Of a DNA stretch of 64,000 bases, positions 52,411 to 56,021 are shown piece after piece (positions within the stretch are counted from its first letter, which is position 1; every line of letters starts with the position of its first letter). Position numbers and translations under genes: made by a program. The notes under the pieces were generated by a model. The model searched no databases. It saw only the letters and a program-made list of their open reading frames with translations, and was not told the origin of the DNA. The stretch is taken from assembly GCF_057098645.1 (NCBI RefSeq), contig NZ_CM169472.1. One strand, 5' to 3'.

Positions 52411-53307
52411 TTACGGTACGTCGTAACCCAGTGCCGCTTTACGGATACGAAACCATTGTTGACGGGTCATTTTCAGTGTTTCTGCTTCGACAGCTGCCCG
52501 TACGCGCTCAATTTTACCTGAGCCGATAATTGGCAGCGGCTGCGATGGTAAACGTAATACCCAGGCGTAAACCACCTGTTCAATCGAGCCCGCGTTTAAC
52601 TCCTCTGCCACCACAGCCAGTTCATCACGCAGCGGCTGGAAATAATCATCATTAAACAGACGACCACCACCAAGGCAGGACCACGCCATCGGACGAACAC
52701 GCAGTTGTTGCAGTTGGTCGAGCGTGCCATCCAGCAGTAACGGCTGATGTACCGGGGATATTTCCACCTGATTAGTGGCAAGGGTAAACGGCAGACGTGA
52801 TTGCAACAGGGCAAATTGCGCAGGCGTAAAGTTCGATACGCCAAAATGACGCACTTTGCCGCTCTGATGCAGATGTTTGAACGCGTCCGCCACTTCATCG
52901 GCATCCATTAACGGGTCCGGGCGGTGGATTAACAGCAGATCCAGATGATCGGTCGCAAGATTAATTAGCGACTGTTCGGCGCTCTTAATGATGTGATCGC
53001 GGTCAGTGATGTAATGACCAATGACGTTTTCTTCACGCGCGGTCGTCGCGATACCGCATTTACTGACGATTTCCATCCGCTCACGCAGGTGAGGTGCCAG
53101 TTTCAGCGCCTCGCCAAACGCCGCTTCGCACTGATAGCCACCATAAATATCAGCATGGTCCACGGTGGTCACGCCGAGATCCAGATGCTCTTCAATAAAA
53201 CTGACCAGCTGGCGGGCGGACATGTTCCAGTCCATCAATCGCCAGTAGCCCATCACAAAACGGGAAAACTCCGGGCCTTGCGGCGCAATAGTAATACGCT
53301 GAACCAT
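52411..53307 (-). CDS. ydhF: Aldo/keto reductase-family oxidoreductase
   Basis: 298-aa ORF; synteny. Confidence 0.88.
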   Translation of the reverse strand: MVQRITIAPQGPEFSRFVMGYWRLMDWNMSARQLVSFIEEHLDLGVTTVDHADIYGGYQCEAAFGEALKLAPHLRERMEIVSKCGIATTAREENVIGHYITDRDHIIKSAEQSLINLATDHLDLLLIHRPDPLMDADEVADAFKHLHQSGKVRHFGVSNFTPAQFALLQSRLPFTLATNQVEISPVHQPLLLDGTLDQLQQLRVRPMAWSCLGGGRLFNDDYFQPLRDELAVVAEELNAGSIEQVVYAWVLRLPSQPLPIIGSGKIERVRAAVEAETLKMTRQQWFRIRKAALGYDVP

Positions 53308-53355
53308 AATCGCTTCCTCTTATCAGATATGAGAGGAGTATACGCAAGATTAGGC

Positions 53356-53595
53356 TCAAAAGAGTGATGGTTGCTCCGGTTCGTCTGATGACGCTGGCTT
53401 ATTTGCACGTAATTTGCGCATTAATCGTTGCCGACAAAGGCGCAGCACCTCTTGTTTTTCGCCATCGCTCATTTTATTCCAGTTAAAACGCTCATCCCGA
53501 CTACGAAAACAGCCGCGACAAAACCCGCGTTCGTCAGACTGGCAAATTCCCCGGCACGGGCTCTGGACGGGAAAGAACTCTAATTGCTCCGCCAC
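53356..53595 (-). CDS. ydhL: DUF1289-family small Cys-rich protein
   Basis: C-terminal 79 codons of the 136-aa ORF, starting at an in-frame GTG (Val58); conserved Cys motif (CRGICQSDERGFCRGC). Confidence 0.6.
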   Translation of the reverse strand: MAEQLEFFPVQSPCRGICQSDERGFCRGCFRSRDERFNWNKMSDGEKQEVLRLCRQRLMRKLRANKPASSDEPEQPSLF

Positions 53596-53667
53596 TTCGC
53601 CCTCCTCAAATAAGATTATTACCATTATTGAAGCTGTTAATGCCCAAAGTAGCAACTTTGCTTGCAC

Positions 53668-53683
53668 TAGACCGACTGGTCTA
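53668..53683. promoter_or_regulatory. NemR operator-like box TAGACCGACTGGTCTA
   Basis: Inverted repeat TAGACC-N4-GGTCTA about 15 bp upstream of the nemR start. Confidence 0.6.
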
Positions 53684-53697
53684 CTACACTCCAACGC

Positions 53698-54297
53698 ATG
53701 AACAAACACACCGAACATGATACTCGCGAACATCTCCTGGCGACGGGCGAGCAACTTTGCCTGCAACGTGGATTCACCGGGATGGGGCTAAGCGAATTAC
53801 TAAAAACCGCTGAAGTGCCGAAAGGGTCCTTCTATCACTACTTTCGCTCTAAAGAAGCGTTTGGCGTAGCCATGCTTGAGCGCCATTACGCCGCATATCA
53901 CCAGCGACTGACTGAGTTGCTGCAATCCGGCGAAGGTAACTACCGCGACCGCATACTGGCTTATTACCAGCAAACACTGAACCAGTTTTGCCAACATGGA
54001 ACCATCAGTGGTTGCCTGACAGTAAAACTCTCTGCCGAAGTGTGCGATCTGTCAGAAGATATGCGTAGCGCGATGGATAAAGGCGCTCGCGGCGTGATCG
54101 CCCTGCTCTCGCAGGCTCTGGAAAATGGCCGTGATAGCCATTGTTTAACCTTTTGTGGCGAACCGCTGCAACAGGCACAAGTGCTTTACGCACTATGGCT
54201 GGGTGCGAATCTGCAGGCCAAAATTTCGCGCAATTCCGAGCCACTGGAAAACGCGCTGGCACATGTAAAAACCATTATTGCGACGCCTGCCGTTTAG
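53698..54297 (+). CDS. nemR: TetR-family electrophile-sensing repressor NemR
   Basis: 199-aa ORF with an N-terminal TetR HTH. Confidence 0.92.
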   Translation: MNKHTEHDTREHLLATGEQLCLQRGFTGMGLSELLKTAEVPKGSFYHYFRSKEAFGVAMLERHYAAYHQRLTELLQSGEGNYRDRILAYYQQTLNQFCQHGTISGCLTVKLSAEVCDLSEDMRSAMDKGARGVIALLSQALENGRDSHCLTFCGEPLQQAQVLYALWLGANLQAKISRNSEPLENALAHVKTIIATPAV

Positions 54298-54333
54298 CAG
54301 GCATTTTTTATCACCAGACGACCGGGAGCCTTT

Positions 54334-55431
54334 ATGTCATCTGAAAAACTGTATTCCCCACTGAAAGTGGGCGCAATAACTGCGGCAAACCGTATTTTTA
54401 TGGCACCGCTGACGCGTCTGCGCAGTATTGAACCGGGTGACATCCCTACCCCGTTGATGGCGGAATACTATCGCCAACGTGCCAGTGCCGGTTTGATTAT
54501 TAGCGAAGCCACGCAAATTTCTGCCCAGGCAAAAGGGTATGCTGGTGCACCTGGCATCCATAGTCCGGAACAAATTGCCGCATGGAAAAAAATTACCGCT
54601 GGCGTTCATGCTGAAAATGGTCATATGGCCGTACAGCTGTGGCACACCGGACGCATTTCTCACGCCAGCCTGCAACCTGGCGGTCAGGCACCGGTAGCGC
54701 CTTCAGCACTTAGCGCGGGAACACGTACTTCTCTGCGCGATGAAAATGGTCAGGCGATCCGTGTTGAAACATCCATGCCGCGTGCGCTTGAACTGGAAGA
54801 GATTCCAGGTATCGTCAATGATTTCCGTCAGGCCATTGCTAACGCGCGTGAAGCCGGTTTTGATCTGGTAGAGCTCCACTCTGCTCACGGTTATTTGCTG
54901 CATCAGTTCCTTTCCCCTTCTTCAAACCATCGTACCGATCAGTACGGCGGCAGCGTGGAAAATCGCGCACGTTTGGTACTGGAAGTGGTCGATGCCGGGA
55001 TTGAAGAATGGGGTGCCGATCGCATTGGCATTCGCGTTTCGCCAATCGGTACTTTCCAGAACACAGATAACGGCCCGAATGAAGAAGCCGATGCACTGTA
55101 TCTGATTGAACAACTGGGTAAACGCGGCATTGCTTATCTGCATATGTCAGAACCAGATTGGGCGGGAGGTGAACCGTATACTGATGCGTTCCGCGAAAAA
55201 GTACGCGCCCGTTTCCACGGTCCGATTATCGGCGCAGGTGCATACACGGTAGAAAAAGCCGAAACGCTGATTGGCAAAGGGTTAATTGATGCGGTGGCAT
55301 TTGGTCGTGACTGGATTGCGAACCCGGATCTGGTCGCCCGCTTGCAGCGCAAAGCTGAGCTTAACCCACAGCGTGCTGAAAGTTTCTATGGTGGCGGTGC
55401 GGAAGGCTACACTGATTACCCGACGTTGTAA
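54334..55431 (+). CDS. nemA: N-ethylmaleimide reductase (Old Yellow Enzyme family, FMN)
   Basis: 365-aa [31 protein letters not shown]... Confidence 0.93.
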
Positions 55432-55511
55432 TCCAACATTGCGAGCGGCGCAAAGCCGCCGCTATACTAAAACAACATTTTGAATCTGTTAGCCATTTTG
55501 AGGATAAAAAG

Positions 55512-55919
55512 ATGCGTCTTCTTCATACCATGCTGCGCGTTGGCGATTTGCAACGCTCCATCGATTTTTATACCAAAGTTCTGGGCATGAAACTGCTGCG
55601 TACCAGCGAAAACCCGGAATACAAATACTCACTGGCGTTTGTTGGCTACGGCCCGGAAACCGAAGAAGCGGTGATTGAACTGACCTACAACTGGGGCGTG
55701 GATAAATACGAACTCGGCACTGCTTATGGTCACATCGCGCTTAGCGTAGATAATGCCGCTGAAGCGTGCGAAAAAATCCGTCAAAACGGGGGTAACGTGA
55801 CCCGTGAAGCGGGTCCGGTAAAAGGCGGTACTACGGTTATCGCGTTTGTGGAAGATCCGGACGGTTACAAAATTGAGTTAATCGAAGAGAAAGACGCCGG
55901 TCGCGGTCTGGGCAACTAA
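55512..55919 (+). CDS. gloA: Glyoxalase I (lactoylglutathione lyase)
   Basis: 135-aa [33 protein letters not shown]... Confidence 0.95.
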
Positions 55920-56021
55920 TCTCCTGCCGGGCGCGAACTCATCGCGCCCGCATCTTTACTGCATCGACAAGTAATATTTGTCATAATGCGCGCTGCAATT
56001 TATCCGTATTAAGAGAATCAG

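Follow-up and report, generated by a model that had tools for sequence, protein, structure and literature searches.

The 16 bp palindrome in the promoter spacer of Escherichia coli nemR is very probably the NemR operator already known from K-12

TetR/tetO, QacR IR1 and AcrR represent an autoregulated arrangement in which a TetR-family dimer sits on a palindrome of ~15-16 bp over the core promoter and is released by an inducer. The tetR mRNA of Tn1721 is leaderless, as is the mRNA of another repressor, lambda cI. The NemR system of E. coli resembles this arrangement in its palindrome, its placement over the core promoter and its release, and differs from it in two respects. NemR responds to covalent or oxidative modification of cysteines rather than to reversible binding of a ligand, and its gene is the first of its own target operon (the type II arrangement), whereas systems of the TetR/tetO type are divergent.

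The NemR site is said to have been defined by the DNase I footprint and EMSA work of Umezawa in 2008, and the 'NemR box' of that work we take to be the 16-mer described below. Purified NemR reportedly bound DNA in the hands of Umezawa in 2008 and of Lee and of Gray in 2013, and NEM, methylglyoxal or HOCl is said to abolish the binding. Physiological studies have shown that NemR represses nemRA and that N-ethylmaleimide and methylglyoxal inactivate NemR by cysteine modification (PMC3739934). When nemR is deleted, the nemA and gloA transcripts and GlxI activity rise about 5-fold, gloA being transcribed by read-through from nemRA because no strong terminator lies between nemA and gloA (PMC3739934). 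Quinones, glyoxals and reactive chlorine species reduce NemR DNA binding, and the sensing residues are Cys21/Cys116 and Cys106 (PMC5297802). Mutations in nemR and in the nemR promoter were also selected as suppressors of a rutE deletion, the 'nemR promoter' mutations being 'predicted to eliminate repression by NemR' (PMC3045373). Two NemR SELEX sites genome-wide were counted by Ishihama 2016.

The window analysed here is the whole stretch of 64,000 nucleotides from contig NZ_CM169472.1. Its 1.1 kb segment from 53300 to 54400 agrees with E. coli O145:H28 chromosomes at 100% identity, and 5425 of 5426 complete E. coli genomes have a match to it. In the 100%-identical strains, the RefSeq labels for this segment are ydhF, ydhL, nemR and nemA. 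A preliminary description, made from the sequence alone, had named nemR, nemA and gloA as the genes 3' of the box, and RefSeq names, NCBIfam scores and a structural match all agree. That is, the products of nemA and gloA score over the cut-offs of their NCBIfam models, the regulator product finds only TetR-family models among its NCBIfam matches, and its match to 4yze, the solved structure of E. coli NemR, has E = 1e-123. A promoter-like site, TTGCGA-18-TATACT (55439-55468), lies in the nemA-gloA spacer and fits the reported own promoter of gloA. The promoter and terminator scan also returned a 9 bp GC-rich terminator-like hairpin 3' of gloA (55928-55950). The layout of the locus is given in Table 1.

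Table 1. Features of the ydhF-gloA region, in coordinates of the window (SD, Shine-Dalgarno sequence; TSS, transcription start site)
Feature	Coordinates	Strand	Details
ydhF	52411-53307	-	
ydhL	53356-53595	-	
ydhL SD, GAGGAGGG	reverse complement of 53600-53607	-	strong
ydhL-nemR spacer			102 bp; divergent genes
ydhL TSS	53620	-	Kim 2012 (PMC3415461): 25 nt 5'UTR, upstream sequence matches
ydhL promoter	53620-53655	-	-35 TTGCTA (reverse complement of 53650-55), 17 bp spacer, -10 TTCAAT (reverse complement of 53627-32)
nemR promoter -35, TTGCAC	53662-53667	+	abuts box directly; TTG invariant in 34/34 species; correctly placed for mapped TSS
nemR promoter -10, TACACT	53685-53690	+	1 nt 3' of box; T1, A2, T6 invariant in 34/34 species
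nemR TSS	53698	+	A of ATG; Kim et al. 2012 (PMC3415461) Tables S1 and S4
nemR	53698-54297	+	TetR-family repressor; 199-codon ORF, ATG at 53698
Weak terminator-like hairpin	54285-54302	+	6 bp, GCCTGC-CGTTTA-GCAGGC and T-run; overlaps nemR stop codon
Second box of the other species, sequence form			TAGACGACCGGTCTA
Vestigial second box of E. coli, CAGACGACCGG	54315-54325	+	alignment, exact-pattern map
nemA SD, GGGAG	54324-54328	+	
nemA	54334-55431	+	N-ethylmaleimide reductase (old yellow enzyme); NF007899 764.6 bits; shares the nemR promoter according to the literature
gloA	55512-55919	+	glyoxalase I (lactoylglutathione lyase); NF007629 305.6 bits
rnt, lhr	3' of gloA		

The preliminary description had placed an inverted repeat, TAGACC and GGTCTA about GACT, at 53668-53683, about 15 bp upstream of the nemR start. 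Coordinates and arms proved exact on the + strand, where the segment reads TAGACCGACTGGTCTA, with perfect 6 bp arms and a non-palindromic GACT centre. Between the box and the ATG lie 14 nt, and the centre of the box is at -22.5 relative to that ATG. Searching for TAGACC-N4-GGTCTA with 0 mismatches gives 1 match in the window, where 100 shuffles lead one to expect 0.01; when up to 2 mismatches are allowed there is still 1 match, against 0.86 expected. An inverted repeat of the 6-N4-6 form is unremarkable per se, as the window holds 34 perfect ones against ~16 expected under a uniform model. Because such repeats are common in the window, the informative signal is the specific sequence together with its position and its conservation, and not palindromy. 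The 63 bp core from 53650 to 53712 is found at 100% identity in 5036 of 5422 complete E. coli genomes.

Another perfect 6-N4-6 palindrome, CAAAGTAGCAACTTTG, lies nearby at 53645-53660, 23 nt from the box, and overlaps the -35 hexamer of ydhL. It is kept in Escherichia alone (E. coli, E. albertii) and is probably a product of chance.

The -35 and -10 hexamers of nemR are separated by 17 bp, 16 of which are the box. Judged by its sequence, the nemR promoter is of the sigma-70 type, with a 17 bp spacer nearly all of which would be operator. A simple sigma-70 consensus scan of the window left this promoter uncalled, because its -35, TTGCAC, matches the consensus at 3 of 6 positions only. The mapped TSS puts the box within an experimentally supported nemR core promoter (PMC3415461). 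Kim et al. 2012 (PMC3415461) place the E. coli nemR TSS at 1724047, the first base of the gene, with a 5'UTR of 0 and 15 reads. The Klebsiella orthologue KPN_01988 (ydhM) is likewise leaderless, with 20 reads, and the sequence 5' of it in their table includes TAGACCAATCGGTCTA.

Thus, in E. coli as in Klebsiella, the published TSS coincides with the A of the start codon, and the nemR mRNA is leaderless. This start agrees with the distance from the end of the -10 to the ATG, which is 7 nt (CCAACGC) in the window and 6-8 nt in 29 of 34 species, and with the missing Shine-Dalgarno sequence in CCAACGC. The leaderless start is already published, in a supplementary table (Kim 2012, PMC3415461), and goes unmentioned in the NemR literature that we found. 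One phrase in that literature is awkward for a leaderless transcript, namely the mention of a mutation in a 'ribosome binding site for nemR' (PMC3045373). If the transcript is leaderless, the lesion would fall between the -10 and the start, and more probably it disturbs start-site selection or leaderless translation instead. For the 'pnemR' suppressor SNP in Table S4 of the same paper, the coordinates are those of per-strain de novo assemblies; they are mutually inconsistent and no position is derivable from them.

To follow the box beyond E. coli, one genome per species was scanned, which gave 80 loci encoding NemR relatives, 34 of them with nemA directly downstream. NemR identity in these 34 loci runs from 97% down to 50%, and they span Escherichia, Citrobacter, Enterobacter, Kluyvera, Cedecea, Providencia, Budvicia, Erwinia, Yersinia and Serratia. 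The box is retained in all 34, at 10-12 of the 12 arm positions. Its centre is found 21.5-23.5 nt before the start codon, or 31.5 nt in three Serratia loci because of start-codon offsets. In 28 of the 34 loci (221 kb), exactly one 16 bp box is present, always 5' of nemR; the box of the other six has 1-2 arm substitutions.

The bases that are kept define the site closely. Box positions G3 A4 C5 and G11 G12 T13 C14 are invariant in the 34 species, and centre position 9 is nearly random. The 4 nt centre reads GACT, GAAC, GAAT, GATT, GATC, AATC, AACC, GAGC or GTTC. A box-anchored profile of the 34 species reaches 2.0 bits at TTG (53662-64), at the GAC and GGTC of the box, and at T53685, A53686 and T53690; information content is near zero further upstream and from the -10 to the ATG. 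The frame invariant in these species reads TTGnnn, the 16 bp box, 1 nt, TAnnnT, 6-10 nt, ATG. A literature search found no earlier comparative-genomics account of NemR sites, and a RegPrecise-type database entry may still exist.

The preliminary description took the palindrome to be the NemR operator of the nemRA-gloA unit. Its placement in the nemR promoter, its conservation with nemR and the literature support that assignment. We therefore hold it highly probable that the 16 bp palindrome is the NemR operator, lodged in the spacer of an autoregulated nemR-nemA(-gloA) promoter and released by electrophiles or HOCl. What is found at the locus is a 16 bp palindrome in the nemR-nemA core promoter, the cognate nemR adjacent to it, and co-evolution of the two. 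The K-12 nemRA NemR box (Umezawa et al. 2008; RegulonDB/EcoCyc site) has the same 16-mer, the same flanks and genes and the same distance to nemR. K-12 MG1655 is identical to the window from the -35 through the ATG, its box lying at NC_000913.3 1725993-1726008; the window belongs to another lineage of E. coli, and the SNPs between the two are elsewhere in the spacer only. The sequence, its placement with respect to the hexamers and the mapped TSS, and its co-evolution with nemR are direct observations on these genomes. NemR binding, repression and inducers at the box are taken from the literature, and contact with these 16 bp is second-hand.

The switch is expected to work as follows. A NemR dimer would bind in the -35/-10 spacer, with one helix-turn-helix on each TAGACC half-site. 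So bound, it would keep RNA polymerase from contacting the promoter, presumably by steric occlusion, and transcription would not initiate. The nemR product would in this way repress its own promoter, from which an mRNA beginning at the A of its own AUG would be made; negative autoregulation is to be expected because nemR stands at the head of the unit. According to the literature, NemR cysteines are modified by N-ethylmaleimide, methylglyoxal, glyoxal, quinones or HOCl, upon which NemR leaves the DNA. Its release would allow transcription of nemR, nemA and, by read-through, gloA.

Other readings of the box have to be weighed against the NemR operator. Instead of a protein site, the repeat might be a chance occurrence or a hairpin of nucleic acid, acting as terminator, attenuator or RNA element, given the abundance of perfect 6-N4-6 repeats in the window, the ability of a single strand to form a 6 bp hairpin (DNA, -4.2 kcal/mol, z = -2.7), and a terminator scan that flagged the orthologous Citrobacter box with its T-rich tail. 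We give this reading practically no credence. The exact sequence, which has a chance expectation of only 0.01, is nevertheless kept from Escherichia to Serratia, and chance is thereby effectively refuted. The box is upstream of both TSSs (nemR, 53698, +; ydhL, 53620, -), so neither the nemR nor the ydhL mRNA contains it. Its arms keep their sequence and show no compensatory change, as a protein site would and a helix would not; it was not called terminator-like in the scan of the window, and no Rfam family matched it at E <= 1. A hairpin or RNA element is dismissed on the strength of this position, the lack of compensatory variation and the Rfam result. It is also very unlikely that the box chiefly controls ydhL, as a shared bidirectional operator. 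The two genes are divergent and closely spaced, and the ydhL -35 is 12 bp from the box, but the centre of the box lies beyond the ydhL core promoter, at 55.5 bp upstream of the TSS of that gene. The ydhL promoter, of which the block ATTGAAGAC...GCAA is kept in an alignment of Escherichia, Citrobacter and Enterobacter, does not overlap the box; the two promoters stand back to back with their -35 hexamers 6 bp apart. The box follows nemR, moreover, even where ydhL is 1-2 kb away (at least nine species) or not found in the locus (others), and it is still 22 nt before nemR there. No literature report was found that names ydhL as a NemR target.

The same bases are known as a site for a second TetR-family protein, RutR, and this makes for the most serious alternative. 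TAGACCGACTGGTCTA is the RutR ChIP-chip target 'intergenic (ydhM)', at -22.5 of ydhM, in Table 1 of Shimada et al. 2008 (PMC2475637), and the 16-mer is among 16 targets shifted by purified RutR at 10-50 nM in EMSA (PMC2475637), so that the exact 16-mer is bound in vivo and in vitro. The E. coli RutR box, TTGACCAnnTGGTCAA, has the same 6-4-6 geometry, with half-sites one base apart (TAGACC versus TTGACC); the 16-mer agrees with this consensus at 11 of 14 positions, including A at position 4 and T at position 13. Not one of the 34 NemR boxes departs from these two RutR-critical bases, and agreement with the RutR consensus across the 34 runs from 8 to 11 of 14 positions. Because RutR also binds the 16-mer, sequence and conservation alone cannot say which of the two proteins it serves. 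The site could then be primarily or additionally a functional RutR operator that co-represses nemRA and ties NemA to pyrimidine degradation. The suppression of rutE loss by nemR mutations gives RutR cross-binding a possible physiological rationale, since NemA can replace RutE, the reductase of the Rut pathway. Nevertheless, an effect of RutR on transcripts was detected at ves only (PMC2475637), and a later review sees no role for RutR in nemRA-gloA regulation (PMC5297802), that is, the literature reports no regulatory effect at this box. The window box has A and T at positions 2 and 15, where the RutR box has T and A; these NemR-distinguishing bases are kept in 32-33 of the 34 species, as expected if NemR is the selective agent, and conservation follows nemR. 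By contrast, centre positions 7 and 10, at which RutR prefers A and T, drift freely between species, and NemR and RutR resemble each other only in the HTH region, at 40% identity over 40 residues. We treat RutR binding at the box as cross-recognition and consider a functional RutR operator unlikely, a small probability of such a role being left by the genetics that connect nemR with the Rut pathway.

With the NemR operator so placed, the nemR-nemA junction shows how E. coli departs from its relatives. A second box, of 15 bp and of the form [T/A]AGn[C/T]GAC[C/T]GGTCTA (TAGnCGACyGGTCTA), occurs in the nemR-nemA spacer of all 33 loci outside E. coli. It is found once per locus, always on the + strand and 25-33 nt before nemA (e.g., locus L003, 3632-3646), and it sits between a hairpin after nemR and the nemA Shine-Dalgarno sequence. 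Its right arm is invariant, and position 4 of its left arm is A, T or C without compensation. E. coli keeps only CAGACGACCGG of it because the right arm, GTCTA, is deleted. The E. coli nemR-nemA spacer is ~18 nt shorter than in the other species examined, the missing stretch taking in ~9 nt of the right arm, and 5425 of 5426 E. coli genomes have this short junction. Most other genera have a strong terminator hairpin and T-run after nemR, 5' of the second box, at the place where E. coli has the weak hairpin of Table 1. A sigma-70 scan in Citrobacter and Yersinia found no consensus promoter beside the second box.

A weak TSS of 3 reads is reported at 54315, where the vestigial box begins, 19 nt before nemA (Kim 2012, PMC3415461). 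Together with the weak hairpin, it hints at some nemR-independent or attenuated expression of nemA.

All 33 other Enterobacterales in the comparison would have a two-tier design, made up of a leaderless, autoregulated nemR with its 16 bp box, a hairpin, and a 15 bp box before nemA. The second box might be a roadblock, or an operator specific to nemA. We offer the tentative proposal, which we regard as possible though less probable than its opposite, that the single box of E. coli is a derived, simplified state of this design, in which one dimer would read both 6-4-6 and 5-5-5 sites. As a separate matter, RutR occupancy of the 16 bp box might matter solely when NemR has been inactivated.

The 15 bp form is also found further afield. 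TAGACGACYGGTCTA (TAGACGAC(T/C)GGTCTA or a close variant) lies 5' of ~39 of 46 distant NemR-like TetR genes. These genes, of 39-47% identity and mostly without nemA, come from beta-, gamma- and alpha-proteobacteria and include members of Burkholderia, Vibrio, Pseudomonas and Lysobacter; the sites are ~26-50 nt upstream of the starts of the NemR homologues. Such 15 bp TAGAC-GACYG-GTCTA sites have the same half-sites as the 16 bp box with one central bp fewer, at a similar distance to the regulator start or to nemA, the nemA-proximal copy of E. coli being truncated. The presence of the 15 bp form before ~39 of the 46 distant genes implies that the half-site is family-wide and that the 16 bp spacing is particular to the enterobacterial nemR promoter.

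The box is already known. Documented earlier as the switch for the response of E. coli to electrophiles and bleach, it controls the NemA reductase and raises glyoxalase I. The preliminary description had called it known biology, rightly so, since the NemR box and NemR repression, the leaderless start and RutR binding have all been published. Its account of the operator holds as to identity and place; it omitted the RutR site, the leaderless state of nemR and the position of its box between -35 and -10, the own promoter of gloA, and the second box of the other species. As a positive control, the case is one in which a real operator was located at base-pair accuracy by a tool-free reading of sequence. 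The refinements are that the operator fills the spacer of a leaderless repressor gene, that its bases are common to RutR, and that the nemA-proximal box was lost in E. coli. If the two-tier proposal is true, a roadblock or operator role of the second box would uncouple basal expression of the repressor from expression of the enzyme, and the arm deletion and weakened terminator of E. coli would have fused nemA, and gloA by read-through, to the nemR promoter. One TetR-family dimer would then read half-sites at two spacings, 6-4-6 and 5-5-5. The locus also offers modest leads on leaky target expression in autoregulated, repressor-first operons and on cross-talk among TetR-family paralogues.
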